Positions 34,631 through 59,725 of a DNA stretch of 64,000 nucleotides are shown here, piece after piece. Position numbers and translations under genes: made by a program. Each line of letters starts with the position of its first letter. Within the stretch, counting starts at the first letter, position 1. The notes under the pieces were generated by a model. That model was not told the origin of the DNA. It was given only the letters and a program-made list of their open reading frames with translations, and made no database searches. This stretch comes from a virus (Duplodnaviria > Heunggongvirae > Uroviricota > Caudoviricetes), in the IMG/VR virus record IMGVR_UViG_3300012933_000236, positions 1 to 64,000 of that record, one strand, 5' to 3'.

Positions 34631-34856
34631 CATAGGTTATAACATTAGTTAGTACATAGAATATTACATAGGTTATAATATAGATTAACCTTATATTTAG
34701 TACTTATATAAGTATATCTAATAGTAACATCTACTGTTAACATTAAATGTACTAATAGTTTAATTGATTTATAAATAAGATATAAATAAACTAAAGATTA
34801 ATATAGGTTATAACATAGGATAAACTTCAGTTGATACTTTAAGTTATAACCTATAT
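34631..34856. promoter_or_regulatory. operator-like repeats built on the 14-bp palindrome TAGGTTATAACCTA (three direct half-site copies ATAGGTTATAAYAT, one inverted GTTATAACCTATAT)
   Basis: Copies at 34631-34645, 34667-34680, 34803-34818 and inverted at 34843-34856, in a roughly 440-nt AT-rich divergent intergenic region. Confidence 0.5.
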
Positions 34857-35152
34857 TAATATTCTATAATAGTCGCAGTGCTATTTATTTTAAATTATTA
34901 ATTTCTTATTTTTAGTTATGCAGCATGGACGCTCAAGGCGCTTTGCCTGTCCTACGGACGGTTAGATGCAACTTCAACTGTTCTTGCTCGACTACAAGCT
35001 TCACTAAAGCACCTATAAGCCTCTACAAGCTGTCAATTTCAGTTAGTCTAGGGCTTGGTAGCCTGAAGGTACGAAACGAGCATATAGAGCGTTTAAACAA
35101 ATTGATAATTGTGCAAAAAAAAAGATTAGATGTCAACTTTAAGAAAGTAAGC

Positions 35153-36186: not shown

Positions 36187-36261
36187 GCTGGAATAGCTCA
36201 TCTGGTAGAGCAACGGTTTTGTACTCCGTAGAGGTGGGTTCGAGTCCTACTTCTAGCACCA
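36187..36261 (+). tRNA. tRNA-Thr(TGT): tRNA-Thr (anticodon TGT)
   Basis: GCTGGAA acceptor, TAGCTCATCTGGTAGAGC D-arm, anticodon loop TTTGTAC, T-arm GTGGG-TTCGAGT-CCTAC, encoded CCA. Confidence 0.75.
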
Positions 36262-36268
36262 AATTTAA

Positions 36269-36343
36269 GCTACTATCGTCTATCGGTTAGGACATCTGGT
36301 TTTCATCCAGACAAGCGGAGTTCGATTCTCCGTAGTAGCTCCA
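36269..36343 (+). tRNA. tRNA-Glu(TTC): tRNA-Glu (anticodon TTC)
   Basis: GCTACTA/TAGTAGC acceptor, anticodon arm TCTGG-TTTTCAT-CCAGA, T-arm CGGAG-TTCGATT-CTCCG, CCA. Confidence 0.75.
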
Positions 36344-36512
36344 GTATTTACTAAAGTCCAGTGGGTCAAATCCCCGTCCTCTGAGTATTGCCCAATGCTT
36401 GGCGGTGGTGTAGAGAAACACATTAGTATTTACGTGTAATCCGCAACTACGTTAAAAGTTCGGCTGCTCAATCGCCAACGGAAAGAGCATAAGGTTACAG
36501 TTGGATAAATTT

Positions 36513-36587
36513 TGGCATATAGCTCAGAGGTAGAGCAAACGGCTGTTAACCGTTCGGTCTGTGGTTCGATCCCACATTTGCCAGCCA
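36513..36587 (+). tRNA. tRNA-Asn(GTT): tRNA-Asn (anticodon GTT)
   Basis: D-arm GCTCAGAGGTAGAGC, anticodon arm AACGG-CTGTTAA-CCGTT, T-arm TGTGG-TTCGATC-CCACA, CCA. One T-T mismatch in the acceptor stem. Confidence 0.65.
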
Positions 36588-36593
36588 ATCAAT

Positions 36594-36671
36594 CTATATA
36601 TAGGCTAGTCTGGTTAAGTCACCTGATTTGGGGTCAGGAAGTCGGTGGTTCGAATCCATCTATATAGACCA
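36594..36671 (+). tRNA. tRNA-Pro(TGG): tRNA-Pro (anticodon TGG)
   Basis: CTATATA/TATATAG acceptor, anticodon arm CCTGA-TTTGGGG-TCAGG, T-arm GGTGG-TTCGAAT-CCATC, CCA. Confidence 0.7.
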
Positions 36672-36678
36672 TATATTT

Positions 36679-36754
36679 ATATCTCTAGCTCAACTGGCAG
36701 AGCAACGGATTCCAAATCCGTAGGTTGTAGGTTCGATTCCTACGGGGTATGCCA
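36679..36754 (+). tRNA. tRNA-Trp(CCA): tRNA-Trp (anticodon CCA)
   Basis: D-arm GCTCAACTGGCAGAGC, anticodon arm ACGGA-TTCCAAA-TCCGT, T-arm GTAGG-TTCGATT-CCTAC, CCA. Acceptor has two G-U pairs. Confidence 0.7.
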
Positions 36755-50101: not shown

Positions 50102-50155
50102 GCCCTTCGGGGCTTTCTAAAGTAAACTTAGATTCCCTCTTCGGAGGGGTCTAAT
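50102..50155 (+). terminator. tandem rho-independent terminators after the capsid gene
   Basis: GCCCTTCGGGGC followed by TTTCT, then CCCTCTTCGGAGGGG followed by TCTAAT. Confidence 0.6.
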
Positions 50156-50229
50156 ATAAAAACTATGTGTAACATTACTAGTGTTGTATTTAGTTTTTAT
50201 ATTAGATATATTTATATAAGGAATAATAA

Positions 50230-51973: not shown

Positions 51974-53179
51974 ATGACAATTTCAAAAGGTACAGCCAAG
52001 CAGGTTGCTTACAAAAAGGAAACTACATTTGGTACTCTAGCAGGTAATACTTCTGGTAAACTATTGCGTAGAGTTACAGCTAACTTTAACTTGGTAAAAG
52101 AAGCTTATGAATCAGCCGAAATTCGTGTTGATCGTCAGGTAGCTGATTTCCGTCACGGTGTTCGTTCTGCTGAAGGTACTCTAAATGGTGAACTCTCTTC
52201 AGCTTCATATGCTGACTTTATGGGTTCTATCGTAGGTAAAGATTTTGCTGCTGTTACACTCGGTTCTGCTGTTCAAACTACAGTTACTGCTGTTGGTACA
52301 ACATACACTCTAGTTCGTTCAACTGGTTCATGGTTAACTGATGGTATTCGTGTTGGTATGGTTATTCGTGCCAGTGGTTTGACTGCTACTGCTGATAACG
52401 GTAAAAACTTACTAGTTGCATCCTTGACTGCAACAAATGCTGTTGTAGTGCCTCTAAATGGTTCTACCATCACTGCACAAGCTGTAGCAAGTTCAGTTAC
52501 ACTAACTACTCCCGGTAAACAAACCTTTGTACCTGCAACTGGTCACACTGACGATTCTTACACTGTAGAAGAGTTTTATTCTGACATCGCTCAGTCTGAA
52601 GTATACACAGGTATGAAAGTTAACAACCTATCTGTTCAGTTACCTGCAACTGGTTTAACAACTGTAGATATCGGTTTTGCTGGTAAAGACTTAACTCAAG
52701 TTGGTACTAGTCAGTATTTCACATCTCCTACTGCTCAGAATTCAAACGGTATCTTTGCTGCTGTAAACGGTGTGATGCTTGTTGATGGTGCTGCCGTAGC
52801 TCTAGTTACTTCTGCAGATTTTGCAATCGAACGCGCTACTGAAAATGCTGCTGTTGTTGGTTCCAACTCTGTTGCTGATATTTTCACTGGTCGTATCCGT
52901 GTAACTGGTAACTTAAGTGTTTACTTCCAAGATGCTGCTTTCCGTGATTACTTCGATGACGAAACTCCTGTTTCAATCGTATTGACAGTAACTGCTGATA
53001 GTTCTGATGCTGCAAACTTCGTAGCGTTTACCTTACCTAAAGTTAAGCTCGGTAGTTTCACAAAAGATGACGGTGAACTTGGTCTAATCGCTTCAGCAAG
53101 CTTTCAAGCTCTATTGAACGATGTTACTAGTGCAGGTCTAGCTGCTACTACAATTCAAATTCAAGATTCTGCAGCATAA
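51974..53179 (+). CDS. major tail protein (putative)
   Basis: 401 aa, strong RBS AAGGAAA. Followed by a terminator, then the chaperone and tape-measure genes. Confidence 0.5.
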   Translation: MTISKGTAKQVAYKKETTFGTLAGNTSGKLLRRVTANFNLVKEAYESAEIRVDRQVADFRHGVRSAEGTLNGELSSASYADFMGSIVGKDFAAVTLGSAVQTTVTAVGTTYTLVRSTGSWLTDGIRVGMVIRASGLTATADNGKNLLVASLTATNAVVVPLNGSTITAQAVASSVTLTTPGKQTFVPATGHTDDSYTVEEFYSDIAQSEVYTGMKVNNLSVQLPATGLTTVDIGFAGKDLTQVGTSQYFTSPTAQNSNGIFAAVNGVMLVDGAAVALVTSADFAIERATENAAVVGSNSVADIFTGRIRVTGNLSVYFQDAAFRDYFDDETPVSIVLTVTADSSDAANFVAFTLPKVKLGSFTKDDGELGLIASASFQALLNDVTSAGLAATTIQIQDSAA

Positions 53180-53201
53180 TATTGCTAGTGTAACTTGATA
53201 A

Positions 53202-53230
53202 GCCCCGGTTAATAGCCGGGGTTTTTTTTT
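53202..53230 (+). terminator. rho-independent terminator
   Basis: AGCCCCGG-TTAATAG-CCGGGGT hairpin followed by TTTTTTTT. Confidence 0.7.
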
Positions 53231-53241
53231 GCTTACATCAC

Positions 53242-53270
53242 TTGATTTATCATAAAAAATATGCTATAAT
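53242..53270 (+). promoter_or_regulatory. sigma70-type promoter: TTGATT, 17 nt, TATAAT (TGCTATAAT extended -10)
   Basis: ttgatttatcataaaaaatatgctataat, upstream of the chaperone gene. Confidence 0.5.
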
Positions 53271-53305
53271 CAGTACTTCATTAACAATAACAGAAAGGAA
53301 CTATT

Positions 53306-53719
53306 ATGACTTTTGATCTAGCAAAACATAATTACACAGAGATTGCCGAAGTAGGCTACAAATTTGAATTGAAACTTCCCGGTACTGGTGAAGCAACTGG
53401 AGTATTCATCACAGTGCGTGGTGATCAATCTAAAACAGTTAAAGCTTTTGCTCGTAAGAAGTATGCTGAATTCAAACTACGTGAACAACAAGCTAAACGC
53501 AGAGGTAAAGATGTTGAAGACATGACCTTGGAAGAAGCTGAAGAACTTAGTATTGAATCTGCTGTTGTACGAGTCATTGGTTGGGAGAACATTACTGAAA
53601 ACGGTAAGGTCGTTACTTTCACTAAAGAAAATGCAGAAAGAATCTTTAAGGATTATCCTTGGATTAAAGAAGCGGTGATGGAGGAATCAGGTCAAATCCT
53701 GAACTTTCGATCAGAGTGA
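53306..53719 (+). CDS. tail assembly chaperone (gpG-like)
   Basis: 137 aa, immediately upstream of the tape-measure gene. RBS AAAGGAA. Confidence 0.6.
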   Translation: MTFDLAKHNYTEIAEVGYKFELKLPGTGEATGVFITVRGDQSKTVKAFARKKYAEFKLREQQAKRRGKDVEDMTLEEAEELSIESAVVRVIGWENITENGKVVTFTKENAERIFKDYPWIKEAVMEESGQILNFRSE

Positions 53720-54098
53720 AATTCAAGAAGCTATAACTTTTTCTAAACAAGAGTTTGGCTTCGGTAAGCGTTCTAAAGATGGCTCTACCTTAAGAGATCA
53801 ACTCAATTCCGTATGGAGACAAACAGGTATAAAACCTAAAGAGCTTGAAGATATTGTTGAGCTACCTGATGGTTGTATTCATGTATGGAAATGGTTTATT
53901 GATCTGCATAATGCACGAAGCTCTAACGGCTTTGGTGTCAACCCAATAGCTTATACAGAAATTAAAGCTTATTTTGATTTAATAGAGTTGCAGCCTGAAG
54001 AATGGGAAATTAACTTGATTAAGTTATTTGACAATGAAGCATTACAAGCTTACGCGAAAGAAGCTGAAGCTGAACGCAAGAAAAGTAATAAGAAATAA
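53703..54098 (+). CDS. C-terminal extension of the tail assembly chaperone (gpGT-like), expressed by a putative +1 programmed frameshift at UUU-CGA near 53705
   Basis: A 132-codon open frame (+1 relative to G) opens 5 codons before the G stop and contains no ATG/GTG/TTG start. The -1 frame is closed. Slippery TTT followed by the rare CGA codon. Confidence 0.45.
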   Translation, partial: TFDQSEIQEAITFSKQEFGFGKRSKDGSTLRDQLNSVWRQTGIKPKELEDIVELPDGCIHVWKWFIDLHNARSSNGFGVNPIAYTEIKAYFDLIELQPEEWEINLIKLFDNEALQAYAKEAEAERKKSNKK

Positions 54099-54187
54099 AG
54101 TAGTAGCCTTCTAACGAGGGCTTCTATGTGTATGGATTAATGTAGTTTATACACATAGGAATTTACATCCACAACGGGAGAAATGCT

Positions 54188-57100
54188 ATGGATTTAGCAG
54201 AATTAAAGTTCGTAGTTAATACGAAAGAATTGGAAGCTGCCGCTATTAAAGTTGCAGAGTTAGGTACTGCTGTATCTAAGTTAAATAAACCAATGCAGAA
54301 CTTAAGTAAAGAATCTGCAAAAACAAATAAAGAATTAGCTAAAGCTGAAGAAGCTGCTGCTAAGGCTGCACTTGCTCAAACAAAATTAGAACAGGCACAA
54401 GCCAAAAGTGCTCAAACTGCTGCTAAGTCAAGCAGTGTATTAGAGCGTCAGAATCTTATCCTAGAGTACATGGCCCAAGGTAACTCTAAGGGTCAAGCAT
54501 CTATCTTAGCTACAGCTAAAGCTGCTGGTGCATTAGATGATGAAATGCTGCAGTTAAATAAGACTCTTGTTACTCAGCGTACTCTAATCGGTGGTGATCC
54601 ATTCGATAAGAGTATTGGTTTGATGCAGAAGCTACAAAACGAATATAAGACCACAACAGAAGTCACAAATCTATTCAATAAAAACTTAGGTCTTACTCAG
54701 AAACAAATGACTGATCTAGCCCGTGAAAAGGAAAGATTGGTTGCGTTATATGGTATTGAAGGTAAAAGCTTAAATGGATTGTCTGCTGAATATGACAAGT
54801 TGATTCAAAAGAGCGTAAAAATTAACCAAGCTAATTCTGAGCGCACTAATAGTATGAAAGCTCAGATTAAGGCACAAGATGACGCTGTAAGAGCAAGTAC
54901 TTATCTTTCTGCTGAAATGGAAAGAGTTAATAGATTAACACAATCTGGTGGTGATGTTACAAGTTCTGTTAACAATAAATTAATTAAATTTGAACAAGCA
55001 TTAAAGCAATCAGGTCAAAGTGCCAATGAACAAGTCTTAGCCTTAGAAAGATATAAGACAGCTTTAATGTCGATTCAGAAGGCAGCAGGTAATCGTCAGG
55101 TTGATTATCTATCAAGAGCGTTAGGTCCACAGATTACCGACATTGCGGTAGGTTTAGCTACGGGTCAAGCACCTCTAACTATTCTATTGCAACAGGGTGG
55201 TCAGTTACGAGATCAATTTGCTTTAGCTGGTGTAGCTGGTAAAGATATGGGTGACATGCTTACAAAAGCTGCAATAGGAATGGTCAGCAGTGTTAAGGAT
55301 GTTGCTTTAGCCATTGGTGGTGCATTAGGTGGCGCATTCGTTGCTGCTGGTAAATCCGTTAAGAATTTCATTATGGATATTACAGGTACAAGTTCTGCAC
55401 TAGAATATATACGATATCAAATTGCTCTTCTTGATGGTTCCAATGGTATTCTAATGAAAAGCTTCTTGGCAATGGGTGGTCTGTTAACAGGTGTTATTGC
55501 TACAGGTATTTTTGCTGCTGTCGCTGCCTTTATTGCATATGGTGTTGCTCTAAAAGAAGTTATCTCTCAAGAATCTGCTTTATCAAAAGCAATTAATCTA
55601 ACAGGTGGTTCTCTTGGTCTTACTACAGATTCGGCTCTAGGTTTATCAGAAACTCTTGCGGGTTCTAAAGGTAATGTAGGAGCATATCTTACTGCTATTA
55701 CAGACATTGCAAAAGCAGGTAATGTTACATCAGATAATTTAAAAACTGTAGCTAAAACTATTGTTGAAGTCAGTAGAGTAACAGGACTTAGTTCAGAAAC
55801 TCTTGCTAAGAATTTCAGTAAGATATCAGAAAAGCCACTAGAAGGTTTGATTCCCTTTGCTAAAGAATTAGGTACAATTAATGTTGAAATTCTTAAGCAC
55901 ATTCAACGATTAGAAAAAGCAGGTAAATATACAGAAGCTGCTAAGATTGCAACAGATGCATACGCTGGTGCTTTAAGAAACGCTGGTAAGGCAATAAAGG
56001 AAGACATGGGATTCTTAGAGGATTTCTTCTTTCATATTGCTAGAGGCGCTAACATGGTGTGGAATGAAATCCTTAATATTGGTCGTGCTACACCTCTTGT
56101 TAAACAATTAGCAAAGGCTCAAGAAGAACTTACATCATTGCAAAATGGTGATGGTTTCATGACAGACCAATATCGTAAGAACTCAATTCAAGTTGCAGAA
56201 GCGGTTATTAAAGGTATTGAAAATCAAATTACTGCACAGAAAAAACTAGGTGAAGTAAAGGCTAACAATGTAAAAGAAGTTGTTGCTTTAGAAAGAAGTT
56301 TAAAAACTAAGGATGAAAAAGCAATTGTAGTACCAATGAGTAGAGATATTTCTATTATTCAGAAAGATTACAATGAACAGTTGAGACTTGCTGAAGGTTT
56401 CGCTAGAGATGAACGAAGTGTATTGAAAGCTCGTTTTGATGCAGGTTTAATTGAACGTGCTGAATTCATTACAAAAGATACTGACTTACTTGTTAGATCA
56501 GAAGAAAAGCAGTTGTCTGTTATTGAATCATTTAGAGGTAAGTATAAGAAAGCTTATGAAGAACAAACTGCAGCTTTAAATAAAGCTTTGGGTTCTACTA
56601 AAGATGAAGAAAATAGAAAAGTATTGAAGTTATCTATTGAAAACTTAACTAAAGACTTTAATGAATTTAATGCAACATTGGATGATACCAAAACAAAAAT
56701 TGGTTCAGCATTTGGTGCAAGAGAACAGGTGGCATTGTTAGAGTTTGAGAAAGCTGCTTTTGCAAGTACTAAAACTTTCCAAGAATATGCTAGAACACAG
56801 GAAGATGTCGCTGCCAATAAGAAAGTTGATCTACAATTACAAGACAGATTAACAAATGCTTATGGTGCTGAAGCTTCTCAAATTAAAGCAGTAGCTGAAG
56901 AAACAAAAAAACAAACTGCAGAAATTTCTAAGTTTACTAAAGCACAAGAAGAAGCTTACAAACAGTATTTAATCGTACTAAGTAATCCGGCATCATCCTT
57001 AGCTCAATTAGAAGCTGCTGGTGGTGCTTATACTACTGCAATGATCAATGCTAATAAAGCAATTGCGATCTCTAGAGTGAGTATTGAAAATGCAGGTACA

Positions 57101-59725
57101 GACGCTGTTGTAGCTTACTACAAGCAAGAATACGATAGAATCAGTAATGGTGTAACTGACAGTATTGTAACCGCTTTATTTGAAGGTGGTAAAGCTGGAA
57201 GTAAAAAATTTAGAGACTTAATTACTGCTGAACTTAAGAAGCCAATTACAATCATGGTCAAAGCCTTGGTTGATGCTACATTGGGTAGCTCTATTCAAAG
57301 TTTCATGGGTGGTTCAACAGGTAGTGCTGTTGGTTCTGCTGGTGGTAGTATGCTTGGTTCTATGGCTGCATCGGGCGGTTTTGTCGGTTCAGTTGCTAGT
57401 GCTGGTCAATATTTTAGCACAGGATTTATGAATACAGTTGCTGGAACTGGTGCAAGTGCTGGTGCAACGGCTGGAGCCAGTATTGGTGGAGCAAACGGTT
57501 TTGCAATGCAAGCAGGTGCTTACGCTCCCTATATTTTAGCTGCAGTTGCCCTTGTCTCTCTGATTAAATCCTTGGATGATTCAGGTACATATCATACAGG
57601 TGGTGGATCAAAATACAGTGCTGCAGGTGGTTTAACCACTGGTAATACTGGTGGAGAGTTCTTTGATGTTCAATATGGTAAACAAGCGATTGATCTAACA
57701 ACAAATATCACCAAAGCAGTTGTTGGAATTTTAGACTCAACTGCTGTAGCATTTGGTAAAACTGCAGGTTATGAAGCTGCAACTAGTTTTGCTGATGATA
57801 CTAGTAAAGATGGTGCATGGGGTGCTTTACTCATTAATAAAATGGGTGAGAAGCTAATTGATTGGAATGATACTCGTGAAAACAAATGGGCTCCTCGTAA
57901 TTTCTCTGATGGACAACAAGGTATTACTGAATACCTGAATCTTGTAGCTTCAGATGTTCGTAAGTTGTTAATTCAGGAAACACCGGGTTGGGCAGATACA
58001 ATGCTTAATGCCTTGGGTGATGCTCCTACTCTTGAAAATCTAGCTGCTGTTGTAAATCAGATTGGAATGATTCAACAAGCATTCGTTAAATTTGGAAAAG
58101 TATTACCGGGATTCGCTAATATTTCGGATACAAGCATTGAAAGTTTATTGACTTTATTCGGTGGAATTGATAATCTTAATAACTCTTTGAGTTTCTTCTA
58201 TGAGAATTATTTCAGTGAACAGGAGAAAGCTGCAAATCTTACAACAGAGTTAACTGCTCAGTTTAGAGAATTAGGTTTAGAATTACCAACTACTCGTGAA
58301 GCTTTCAGAGCATTGGTTACTGCTGCTAGAGAAGCTGGTGATGATAAACAAGTTAAAAATCTACTTGATTTACAACAATCATTTGCACAGTTAGTACCTG
58401 TTACAGAAATGCTTGTGGGTACAGTTGATGTTCTTACAGAAACCATGCAGGATCTCTTGAAAGAAAGAGCAAATCTTGAAGTGGAATTATTACAGGTACA
58501 AGGTAGAACAGATGAAGCCAATGCTGCATTACGTAGAATTGCTACTGAAGGTTTTACTGAAGCTGAAATAGCTGCTTATGATTACAATCAGAGTTTAAGA
58601 GATCAGATTCAGTCTTATAAAGATGCAGATGAAGCTATTAAATTGCAAAAAGAAAACGCTGAGAAACTACTTCAAACTAGAAAACAGGAAACTGATATAG
58701 CTCTTGATAGTGTAAGACGAGCAATTGACGCTGAAAAAGAATTAGTTCAGGTTCGTTTAGATGCTGCTGAAAAAGAAGAACGGTCTATTAAAGCTGTCTT
58801 TGATTTACTATCTTCTACTATCTCAGATATTAGAGGGCAGTCAAATGCAGCAGGTAGCCTAAGTTCAGCGAGAGATTTAATCTCTAATGCTATCAACACT
58901 GGTGTATTACCTGATGCTGATAAGTTATCAGATGCATTGAATGTTGTTAGACGCAGTATTGAATCTACAGCATACGCTACAAAGACTGAGCAAATCAAAG
59001 CAGGTTTAAAACTTGCTAATGAACTTCAGTCATTACAAGATATTGCTGAACCTCAGTTATCTGCAGCGGAACGAGCCGTTATTTTGGCACAAGACCAATT
59101 AGTGATATTAGATAATCAACTCAAACAAGCTCAATTACAAGTTGATGCATTGAGAGGTGTTGATACTTCAATCGTTAGCTTGAGTACTGCAATGAGTAAT
59201 TTAGCTATTGCTATCTCAGCAGAAGCTGCTGCTAAAGCTGCTGTTGCTACTTCTAATAAGACTTCCACAACTACAGGATCACAGACTTCTGCAGGTGGTT
59301 ATAATCTTGTAAGAACTGCAACTGGTGCTACTTTGAACTTCCCCGGTGGTGGTTCTCACTCTGTTGCTGGACCAGACGCTGTTAAATTGCTGACAGACAC
59401 TTATGGTTTAGTATCTGGTCCCGGTGGTAGTTTAGTAAGAACTAGAGCCGATGGTGGTTATACACCTCCCGGTATGACTTTGGTTGGTGAAGATGGTCCA
59501 GAATTGGTTAACTTTAGTCGCCCAAGTATGGTTTACACTGCTGCACAAACTAGCTCTTTGATGGGTGGTTCTTCTTCTGAAGAGCTTGCTGCTATTAGAC
59601 AAGAGTTAATAATGCTTCGTGCAGAAACTCGTGCAGTTGTTAGCAACACATCTAAGACAGCTAAAATTCTTGACAGGTCTAGTCCAGATGGACAAAGCTT
59701 GCAAGTTACTGTTGTTACACCTTAA
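54188..59725 (+). CDS. tape measure protein
   Basis: 1845 aa, extended coiled coil, A/G-rich central region with GG motifs, directly after the chaperone genes. Confidence 0.9.
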   Translation: MDLAELKFVVNTKELEAAAIKVAELGTAVSKLNKPMQNLSKESAKTNKELAKAEEAAAKAALAQTKLEQAQAKSAQTAAKSSSVLERQNLILEYMAQGNSKGQASILATAKAAGALDDEMLQLNKTLVTQRTLIGGDPFDKSIGLMQKLQNEYKTTTEVTNLFNKNLGLTQKQMTDLAREKERLVALYGIEGKSLNGLSAEYDKLIQKSVKINQANSERTNSMKAQIKAQDDAVRASTYLSAEMERVNRLTQSGGDVTSSVNNKLIKFEQALKQSGQSANEQVLALERYKTALMSIQKAAGNRQVDYLSRALGPQITDIAVGLATGQAPLTILLQQGGQLRDQFALAGVAGKDMGDMLTKAAIGMVSSVKDVALAIGGALGGAFVAAGKSVKNFIMDITGTSSALEYIRYQIALLDGSNGILMKSFLAMGGLLTGVIATGIFAAVAAFIAYGVALKEVISQESALSKAINLTGGSLGLTTDSALGLSETLAGSKGNVGAYLTAITDIAKAGNVTSDNLKTVAKTIVEVSRVTGLSSETLAKNFSKISEKPLEGLIPFAKELGTINVEILKHIQRLEKAGKYTEAAKIATDAYAGALRNAGKAIKEDMGFLEDFFFHIARGANMVWNEILNIGRATPLVKQLAKAQEELTSLQNGDGFMTDQYRKNSIQVAEAVIKGIENQITAQKKLGEVKANNVKEVVALERSLKTKDEKAIVVPMSRDISIIQKDYNEQLRLAEGFARDERSVLKARFDAGLIERAEFITKDTDLLVRSEEKQLSVIESFRGKYKKAYEEQTAALNKALGSTKDEENRKVLKLSIENLTKDFNEFNATLDDTKTKIGSAFGAREQVALLEFEKAAFASTKTFQEYARTQEDVAANKKVDLQLQDRLTNAYGAEASQIKAVAEETKKQTAEISKFTKAQEEAYKQYLIVLSNPASSLAQLEAAGGAYTTAMINANKAIAISRVSIENAGTDAVVAYYKQEYDRISNGVTDSIVTALFEGGKAGSKKFRDLITAELKKPITIMVKALVDATLGSSIQSFMGGSTGSAVGSAGGSMLGSMAASGGFVGSVASAGQYFSTGFMNTVAGTGASAGATAGASIGGANGFAMQAGAYAPYILAAVALVSLIKSLDDSGTYHTGGGSKYSAAGGLTTGNTGGEFFDVQYGKQAIDLTTNITKAVVGILDSTAVAFGKTAGYEAATSFADDTSKDGAWGALLINKMGEKLIDWNDTRENKWAPRNFSDGQQGITEYLNLVASDVRKLLIQETPGWADTMLNALGDAPTLENLAAVVNQIGMIQQAFVKFGKVLPGFANISDTSIESLLTLFGGIDNLNNSLSFFYENYFSEQEKAANLTTELTAQFRELGLELPTTREAFRALVTAAREAGDDKQVKNLLDLQQSFAQLVPVTEMLVGTVDVLTETMQDLLKERANLEVELLQVQGRTDEANAALRRIATEGFTEAEIAAYDYNQSLRDQIQSYKDADEAIKLQKENAEKLLQTRKQETDIALDSVRRAIDAEKELVQVRLDAAEKEERSIKAVFDLLSSTISDIRGQSNAAGSLSSARDLISNAINTGVLPDADKLSDALNVVRRSIESTAYATKTEQIKAGLKLANELQSLQDIAEPQLSAAERAVILAQDQLVILDNQLKQAQLQVDALRGVDTSIVSLSTAMSNLAIAISAEAAAKAAVATSNKTSTTTGSQTSAGGYNLVRTATGATLNFPGGGSHSVAGPDAVKLLTDTYGLVSGPGGSLVRTRADGGYTPPGMTLVGEDGPELVNFSRPSMVYTAAQTSSLMGGSSSEELAAIRQELIMLRAETRAVVSNTSKTAKILDRSSPDGQSLQVTVVTP

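Follow-up and report, generated by a model that had tools for sequence, protein, structure and literature searches.

The DNA analysed here, positions 1-64,000 of the Caudoviricetes record IMGVR_UViG_3300012933_000236 (37% GC; hereafter the window), carries two overlapping reading frames that very probably form the G/GT tail assembly chaperone pair of a siphovirus whose relatives include Limnohabitans phage DC31 and Curvibacter phage P26059A, with the longer GT protein predicted to arise when tRNA-Phe slips +1 in the ribosomal P site, from UUU to UUC. The first frame, G (53306-53719, plus strand), encodes 137 amino acids (aa) from an ATG start preceded by AAAGGA and ends GQILNFRSE-stop. The second, the T frame, is open in the +1 frame of the same strand from 53703 to a TAA at 54096-54098 (131 sense codons and the stop), and the two overlap by 17 nucleotides (nt; 53703-53719). 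A preliminary description of this DNA had proposed a gpG-like chaperone in a G/GT arrangement, a long +1 frame overlapping the end of G and closing at 54098, and a +1 slip at UUU_C with re-pairing to UUC, and each of these proposals is supported by the comparisons that follow.

The frames around the overlap confine the shift to a short interval. With a stop frequency of ∼6.8% per codon in a random frame at 37% GC, a run of 131 stop-free codons has a chance probability of ∼1e-4. Upstream of T, the +1 frame contains stops at ∼53676 and at TGA 53700-53702 (plus strand), the latter directly 5' of the proposed site and forming the upstream bound of the shift window; TGA or TAA occupies the homologous position just 5' of the site in most relatives. 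The −1 frame is closed early, as had been described, by a plus-strand TAA at 53734-53736, nine codons past the site, and the overlap in the window contains no X_XXY_YYZ heptamer of the kind used in canonical −1 frameshifting. Within the sequence CTG AAC TTT CGA TCA GAG TGA (53699-53719), the candidate shift site is AAC_UUU_CGA (53702-53710, plus strand), with AAC (53702-53704) in the E site, UUU (53705-53707) in the P site and CGA (53708-53710) in the zero-frame A site. The segment of T read after the shift would then run from 53709 to 54098 on the plus strand (129 codons and the stop, +1 frame), and the predicted GT protein, encoded by 53306-53707 joined to 53709-54095, would have 263 aa and the junction ...QILNF/DQSEIQ..., or more fully ...ESGQILNF-DQSEIQEAITFSK.

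Two scans of IMG/VR returned 135 loci, which after deduplication gave 73 distinct G to T regions from two cultured phages and from IMG/VR contigs; T lies in the +1 frame in 61 of these and in the −1 frame in 12. The closest cultured relatives are DC31 (81% nucleotide identity over the locus) and P26059A, and both genomes keep AAC TTT CGA and have T in the +1 frame. The overlap of every one of the 61 +1 loci contains one, and only one, in-frame TTT with C or T after it, the site reading UUU_U instead of UUU_C in five relatives, where the tRNA would re-pair as UUU. In four loci (L019, L036, L043 and L103 in our numbering) the G stop comes straight after CGN (TTT CGC TGA or TTT CGA TAA) and a +1-frame stop stands just before AAC. 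These minimal overlaps leave only a Leu codon, AAC, UUU and CGN as P-site candidates, and of these UUU alone lets its tRNA, tRNA-Phe, re-pair in the +1 frame.

The Phe codon of the site is TTT in all 55 distinct 184-nt neighborhoods, whereas the other conserved Phe columns are mixed (TTC 45/TTT 10, 23/23, TTT 37/TTC 4, and TTT 35/TTC 19). Given a pooled TTC fraction of ∼0.29 and 31 clusters of <88% identity, the probability of retaining TTT by chance is ∼2e-5, a naive figure in that the sequences are related, and the site is conserved beyond what the protein sequence needs, as under synonymous constraint. At the zero-frame A site the 61 loci have CGA (35), CGC (16), CGU (4), UGC (3), UGU (2), or CAA (1), that is, CGN in 55 of them; the codon that would enter the A site in the +1 frame is GAU (23), GCU (15), GAC (12), GUC (5), GCC (4), GUU (1), or AAU (1), and the codons 3' of CGN vary widely. 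On this alignment the conserved feature is UUU plus a 3' pyrimidine, and CGN is strongly preferred. Conservation of UUUCGA as such, to which the preliminary description had looked, holds for UUU and the pyrimidine (61 of 61) and only partly for CGA (35 of 61). The E-site codon is AAC in 52 loci, AAU in six, UCC in two, and UCA in one, and AAC is present in 46 of 52 sequences though AAT outnumbers AAC by 440 to 190 across the window. Since the −1 relatives all have AAU at this position, we infer that AAC would act as a guard, suppressing a −1 slip that leads to a dead end.

Several other explanations of the same frames have to be weighed. It is highly improbable that T is a separate protein made without any frameshift, by its own initiation or by termination-reinitiation near the G stop. 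Gene callers do sometimes call a T fragment (P26059A_0023, 75 aa from an internal ATG), and some ATG, GTG, or TTG falls in the first 30 T codons in 11 of the 61 loci, but no T start codon is conserved among the relatives: 13 of the 61 T frames lack ATG and GTG altogether, and elsewhere the first start is scattered from codon 29 to codon 116. The window itself belongs to those without ATG or GTG, and the earlier statement that its T frame holds no start of any kind needs amending only for two TTG codons (53988 and 54015; codons 96 and 105), which could give peptides of at most 36 aa and do no harm to the argument. The ATT by the G stop is not conserved either (ATT 22, ATA 12, CTA 10, TTA 3), whereas residues of T are conserved from codon 4 on (E, then A, F, and Q-E-F), upstream of all candidate starts, and the T frame always opens 5' of the G stop and takes in UUU and the pyrimidine. 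Among public proteins only G-length homologs are found. It is barely conceivable that an indel from sequencing or assembly, or decay into a pseudogene, conceals a gene that is truly in-frame or −1. One indel near 53700-53720 could create the pattern in a single sequence, but the same +1 layout recurs in 61 distinct sequences, with T identity down to 44%, whose sources are two isolate genomes and many metagenome assemblies independent of one another, and none of the 73 loci has an in-frame G-T fusion. Nor is the arrangement an error of this particular assembly, because contig L050/L068, whose G and T are 100 and 99% identical to those of the window, shows the same frames. Summed column entropies of 75.8/45.0/135.5 by T codon position (41 loci with the same T length), with the third position the most variable, and pairwise differences to the window of the same pattern (22/9/51 for DC31, for example) show, at the level of sequence variation, that the T frame is under purifying selection. 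A local sequencing indel, and the conventional −1 or in-frame arrangement that its correction would restore, had both been entertained in the preliminary description, and neither survives these comparisons.

The remaining alternatives concern how, rather than whether, the T frame is reached. A +1 shift at another codon of the overlap is very unlikely. The overlap offers AAC, UUU, CGA, UCA, GAG, and UGA, and an A-site stop is known to stimulate +1 shifting (prfB), so that an RF2-like (release factor 2) GAG_UGA or a CGA_U slip might be considered, but tRNA-Glu on GAG cannot re-pair with AGU and tRNA-Arg on CGA cannot re-pair with GAU; moreover, UCA and GAG are absent in the four loci in which the G stop follows CGN directly, and only UUU and the pyrimidine are invariant, the codons after CGN being variable. 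Open reading frame architecture alone cannot tell a +1 from a −2 shift, and the chaperone of phage Mu does shift −2 at GG_GGG_CGA with an A-site CGA read by tRNA-Arg(ICG) (PMC3458567). A −2 shift reaching the same frame is nevertheless most improbable in the window, where re-pairing would be poor (UUU to ACU with CGA to UUC, or AAC to UGA/UAA with UUU to ACU) and there is no G-run or homopolymer like that of Mu; the pyrimidine 3' of UUU, present in 61 of 61 loci, is relevant to re-pairing after a +1 slip, not a −2 slip. Slippage by RNA polymerase, in which an mRNA shortened by 1 nt or lengthened by 2 nt would encode GT, can be set aside almost entirely. Some phage and bacterial genes do make use of transcriptional slippage (PMC5009743). 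The only run at the site is T3 (T4 in five relatives), and the relatives that do carry a T7 run, ZQG1, PMBT14, and DLP4, are of the −1 type. Productive transcriptional slippage needs runs of ∼7 or more.

The identity of the proteins was assessed by profile searches. G matches phrog_313, "Tail assembly chaperone" (E=2.6e-18), and phrog_8233 (E=5.4e-6), with a score of 17.6 bits against Pfam Phage_TAC_4 that lies below the cutoff of 21.1, and the T frame matches Pfam PF23812 Phage_TAC_18 (E=5.5e-19, 68.5 bits against a cutoff of 27). Because the phrog_8233 profile spans both in order, its positions 18-131 matching G and 171-258 matching T, the two are collinear parts of one chaperone family. The NCBIfam search gave no match, and a search of PDB chain sequences with GT gave nothing below E=0.26; AlphaFold2 run on the 263-aa fusion from the single sequence returned an unusable model (mean pLDDT, the predicted local distance difference test score, 38.3; pTM, the predicted template modeling score, 0.22). 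A homology search of public proteins with GT retrieved four, all of G length only, which is uninformative on fusions and indicates that T is not called in public annotation. Upstream of G lies the tail tube protein gene (51974-53179, plus strand; Pfam Phage_tube_2, E=2.1e-37; phrog_290), and downstream of T lies the tape-measure gene (54188-59725, plus strand; 1845 aa; Pfam TMP_2, E=1.1e-29; phrog_25966 and phrog_24). G and T thus sit between the tube and tape-measure genes on the same strand, and this gene order is the classical G/GT position.

In the mechanism we propose, most ribosomes would translate G by standard decoding and stop at UGA 53717, giving the 137-aa product. A minority would pause with peptidyl-tRNA-Phe on UUU 53705-53707 and CGA in the A site; the tRNA-Phe (anticodon GAA) would then slip one base forward and re-pair with UUC 53706-53708, C 53708 would be skipped, and decoding would restart in the +1 frame at GAU 53709. 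This would yield the 263-aa GT. As in lambda, its C-terminal T domain (Phage_TAC_18) would bind the tail tube protein and its G part the tape measure. We infer that the mechanism is ribosomal, that its efficiency is low, a few per cent, and that it serves the stoichiometry of G and GT.

The supply of codons and tRNAs bears on how the slip would be promoted. In the long open reading frames of the window, CGA occurs 4.0 times per 1000 codons (10% of Arg), compared with 4.0 for CGC, 13.7 for CGT, 14.6 for AGA, 0.6 for CGG, and 1.3 for AGG. The preliminary picture of a rare, hungry CGA codon is right in so far as CGA is a minor codon; it is not the rarest, CGG and AGG being rarer, and because relatives use CGC, CGU, UGY, or CAA in its place, rarity is not the conserved feature of the A site. 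With a host GC of ∼59% (PMC12195039), CGC is in any case unlikely to be hungry. The level of shifting is probably set by competition between zero-frame and +1-frame decoding, because the +1 codon is usually abundant (GAU 41.8 and GCU 49.6 per 1000, against 4.0 for CGA). In bacteria CGU, CGC, and CGA are all decoded by the inosine-containing tRNA-Arg(ICG). GAU is about ten times commoner than CGA, as the A1>A0 criterion of PRFect (PMC10274946) expects. The phage itself encodes six tRNAs, at 336-410 and 36187-36754, for Arg(TCT), Thr(TGT), Glu(TTC), Asn(GTT), Pro(TGG), and Trp(CCA). The tRNA-Arg reads AGA and the tRNA-Asn reads the E-site codon of the shift site, and none of the six serves CGN or Phe; the set fits an AT-rich phage in a GC-rich host, and DC31 and its host have GC contents of 37.6 and 59.25%, respectively (PMC12195039).

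A Shine-Dalgarno-like GGAGGA (53680-53685, plus strand) lies inside Met-Glu-Glu codons of G, 20 nt 5' of UUU, and is a possible modulator of the shift. GGAGG precedes UUU in 54 of the 61 +1 loci, by 20 nt in 48 and by 17 nt in six, the latter spacing being that of the P26059A subclade, and it is built from different codons in different subclades (ATG-GAG-GAA versus CAG-GAG-GCG). Glu at −24 is encoded by GAG in 45 sequences out of 50 and by GAA in five, compared with a window-wide GAA:GAG of 523:114, and one further Glu column (+46) is likewise rich in GAG. GGAGG is missing from the nested −1 relatives L110, L118, and L119 even with the same peptide (ATG GAA GAG in L119). In the −1 shift of dnaX the Shine-Dalgarno spacing is ∼10-14 nt. 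At prfB the stimulatory spacing for the +1 shift is 3 nt (PMC5009743). The spacing of GGAGG lies well outside both of these ranges.

Several observations weigh against a programmed +1 slip at UUU_CGA. The comparative sequences are related, and their counts overstate independence. No recognized stimulator was found at the site: the 17-20-nt spacing of GGAGG is, as just noted, not one known to stimulate, and RNAalifold on 31 representatives (<88% identical) over −30 to +30, 0 to +70, and 0 to +121 gave no consensus structure. As judged from these alignments, conserved RNA structure plays no part in the shift. An upstream hairpin in the window (−30 to +10, z=−3.7) was considered as a stimulator and rejected, since it is not conserved and would be unwound inside the ribosome. 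The A-site codon is inconsistently rare, with CGC in 16 and CGU in four of the 61 loci. Finally, in-frame TTT-CGN is not avoided in the long plus-strand open reading frames of the window (six observed, ∼5.8 expected), which points to a low intrinsic efficiency, the dicodon alone giving only low-level shifting. A low efficiency is probable for the shift as a whole, and on our analysis it would be compatible with the low GT:G ratio of lambda and with the low shift efficiency of Mu.

Comparison of the +1 and −1 loci suggests that the direction of the shift has itself evolved. For this purpose the 12 −1 loci were combined with five cultured −1 homologs (n = 17). An in-frame X_XXY_YYZ heptamer is present in 15 of these 17 but in only two of the 61 +1 relatives, and all 58 +1 loci with AAY-UUU have a pyrimidine next, whereas all five −1 loci using A_AAU_UUU have A. 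The −1 heptamers are G_GGA_AAC in Pasteurella Pmp13 and the L121-L125 group, G_GGA_AAG in Mannheimia 1152AP2, U_UUU_UUC in Pseudomonas ZQG1 and PMBT14 (with the same T7 run in Stenotrophomonas DLP4, from a reading of the sequence only), A_AAU_UUU_A in L110, L118, L119, L126, and L127, and A_AAU_UUC in L128. The A_AAU_UUU_A sites occupy the same Asn-Phe codons as the +1 site. L110 (GTA ACA AAT TTT ACG CCG) and P26059A (GTA ACT AAC TTT CGA CCC) align base for base through the Phe codon, and their T proteins align from the residue after Phe (F-YAEDLEE and F-DPNDLEE). In neighbor-joining trees of the G and T proteins (35 taxa, 200 bootstraps; the proteins are short and mosaicism is possible), the +1 taxa were monophyletic in none of the 200 bootstraps, whereas a clade of both types, comprising L113 (+1), L110 (−1), L119 (−1), P26059A (+1), and L114, L115, and L117 (+1), was recovered in 193. 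Fitch parsimony required at least two changes of direction in 200 of 200 replicates and at least three in 197, and trees from G or T alone gave qualitatively the same picture. These results imply that the chaperone family has switched direction at least twice.

A single locus combines the two kinds of site. In L107 (IMGVR_UViG_3300033067_000161), which is of the +1 type, the sequence CTA AAT TTT CGA places the −1 heptamer in A_AAU_UUU_C and the UUU_C of the +1 slip on the same bases. This locus could be an evolutionary intermediate or a site at which ribosomes shift in both directions.

Outside the overlap, the sequence between the tube gene and G contains a strong terminator-like hairpin with a T-run (53200-53233, plus strand), just after the tube gene, followed by a sigma-70-like promoter (TTGATT-17-TATAAT with extended TG; 53242-53270, plus strand). 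Both come from a consensus scan and are pattern matches only, and an Rfam search of 53100-54300 gave only sub-threshold matches, on the terminator. Because the hairpin and then the promoter precede G, transcription of the chaperone and tape-measure genes may be separate from that of the tube gene. In the gap that divides the T stop (54098) from the start of the tape-measure gene (54188), a pair of adjoining hairpins (54106-54160) is kept in nearly all of 57 distinct relatives. A short GC-rich stem (54106-54121) comes first; the second hairpin (54122-54160) is an AT-rich, near-perfect stem of 16-18 bp, the arms of which vary among relatives yet stay complementary, i.e. covary. They have no Rfam match, and the element could be an RNase III or other processing site, an attenuator, or a DNA palindrome before the tape-measure gene. 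Long AT-rich inverted repeats also occur at 50150-50206 and 34794-34863, one with 28-nt arms (82% complementary) just past the major capsid gene and the other with 24-nt arms (92%), and these may belong to the same class of element.

The two cultured relatives merit comment on their annotation. In both DC31 and P26059A the two open reading frames are labeled hypothetical, without a join, and neither the DC31 paper (PMC12195039) nor the P26059A paper (PMC5964084) names a frameshift or a tail assembly chaperone. The GenBank taxonomy line of DC31 (L001, PQ492658.1) gives the genus Pakpunavirus. Pakpunavirus comprises Pseudomonas myoviruses (PMC12846349), P26059A is a siphovirus (PMC5964084), and the tail module of DC31 (a Phage_tube_2 tube gene, G/GT, and a long tape measure) matches that of P26059A; the placement of DC31 in Pakpunavirus looks doubtful.

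Among known systems, the nearest in architecture is the G/GT pair of lambda, which shifts −1 at G_GGA_AAG, and the arrangement is conserved in long-tailed phages (Levin 1993 and Xu 2004, as summarized in PMC5009743); the GT:G ratio of lambda is ∼1:30 (PMC5009743). The locus resembles lambda in having overlapping reading frames between the major tail and tape-measure genes, the second without its own start, and a short abundant product with a rare C-terminally extended fusion would be expected here as well. Among the distant homologs of the family, Pasteurella Pmp13 has the lambda-type heptamer G_GGA_AAC and Mannheimia 1152AP2 has G_GGA_AAG, also of the lambda type. Unlike the tandem −1 slip of lambda on a heptamer, however, the shift proposed here would be +1, by a single tRNA slipping in the P site on UUU_C. 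The phage Mu chaperone, with its −2 shift at GG_GGG_CGA (PMC3458567; PMC3498833) and an efficiency of ∼2.2% (PMC3498833), likewise has T in the +1/−2 frame and CGA in the A site for tRNA-Arg(ICG), and a similarly low efficiency is expected here, but AAC_UUU_CGA has no G-run and does not permit −2 re-pairing. E. coli prfB (RF2) shifts +1 at CUU_UGA with a Shine-Dalgarno sequence 3 nt upstream. The present site would share with it a +1 P-site slip onto UUN and an upstream GGAGG, the differences being that CGA rather than a stop is in the A site, that GGAGG lies 17-20 nt away rather than 3, and that there is no autoregulatory logic of the prfB kind.

Shifting +1 in tail assembly chaperone genes is, as a category, already known, although this case is unannotated in DC31 and P26059A. 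The training data of PRFect contain 350 forward and 2,368 backward chaperone shifts annotated in SEA-PHAGES genomes of actinobacteriophages (PMC10274946), and the chaperone shift of the archaeal virus HSTV-2 is very likely +1 (PMC5009743). The gene, its position, and the direction are the same in actinophages and HSTV-2 as in the window, and the PRFect rule of a homotriplet or homotetramer in the P site with a commoner +1 A-site codon fits (GAU 41.8 versus CGA 4.0 per 1000). In contrast to the actinophages, the phages here are AT-rich phages of freshwater Comamonadaceae, and 61 relatives narrow the site down to a single codon. Experimental proof for actinophage +1 chaperone sites was not found in the literature examined, and the cases in the Pakpunavirus Adele paper and in the announcements for clusters EE, GA, and EA5 are −1.

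The site itself also has parallels outside chaperone genes. Bacterial UUU_Ynn sites are +1-prone, and Yersinia YopN-TyeA is a +1 fusion (PMC5009743). The same tetranucleotide rule, UUU and a pyrimidine with no need of an adjacent stop, describes our loci, which differ in that the shift appears from the sequences to be put to productive use and is conserved across a phage clade. UUU/C-CGG/U dicodons were reportedly tested in E. coli by Schwartz and Curran in 1997. In influenza A, PA-X is produced by a +1 shift on the UUU_C of UCC_UUU_CGU; PA-X-like sites prefer CGN in the A site, and UUU_CGN sites of this type occur in fijiviruses, chronic bee paralysis virus, and amalgaviruses (PMC3498833). 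The site of the window is formally of one dicodon type with the UUU_CGU of PA-X. The likeness extends to the proposed move of the P-site tRNA-Phe from UUU to UUC, CGN in the A site (55 of 61 here), an E-site codon that is synonymously conserved (AAC here, UCC in PA-X), the lack of an evident stimulatory RNA structure, and the low efficiency expected; the differences are the bacterial rather than eukaryotic ribosome, AAC rather than UCC in the E site, and the product, which here would assist virion assembly as a chaperone, whereas PA-X is a host shut-off factor. It is possible, though we put it forward only tentatively, that UUU_CGN is a minimal +1 cassette of the PA-X type, independent of structure and functional on bacterial and eukaryotic ribosomes alike, perhaps through a shared inosine tRNA-Arg, that the chaperone family has flipped at least two or three times between −1 at A_AAU_UUU_A and +1 at AAC_UUU_CGN on the same Asn-Phe codons, and that GGAGG, kept 17 or 20 nt 5' of UUU in +1 members only, is a novel long-range modulator of the +1 shift. 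On that tentative reading, each flip would need only a 1-2-nt indel, a change of AAU to AAC, and replacement of the A after UUU by a pyrimidine.

What goes beyond a routine case, as far as the sequences allow, is an unusually sharply defined +1 site, an apparently repeated switching between −1 and +1 on the same codons, and a PA-X-like preference for UUU_CGN on bacterial ribosomes. The rule that T lies in the +1 frame with the junction AAY-UUU/Y would make GT annotatable throughout a group of abundant freshwater phages. Together with its −1 sisters on the same codons, the clade forms a naturally replicated +1 series of 61 variants with differing A- and E-site codons, a comparative set for asking what sets the direction and efficiency of shifting at UUU sites in bacteria, and it allows a test of whether the UUU_CGN preference of eukaryotic RNA viruses is a general property of the ribosome.

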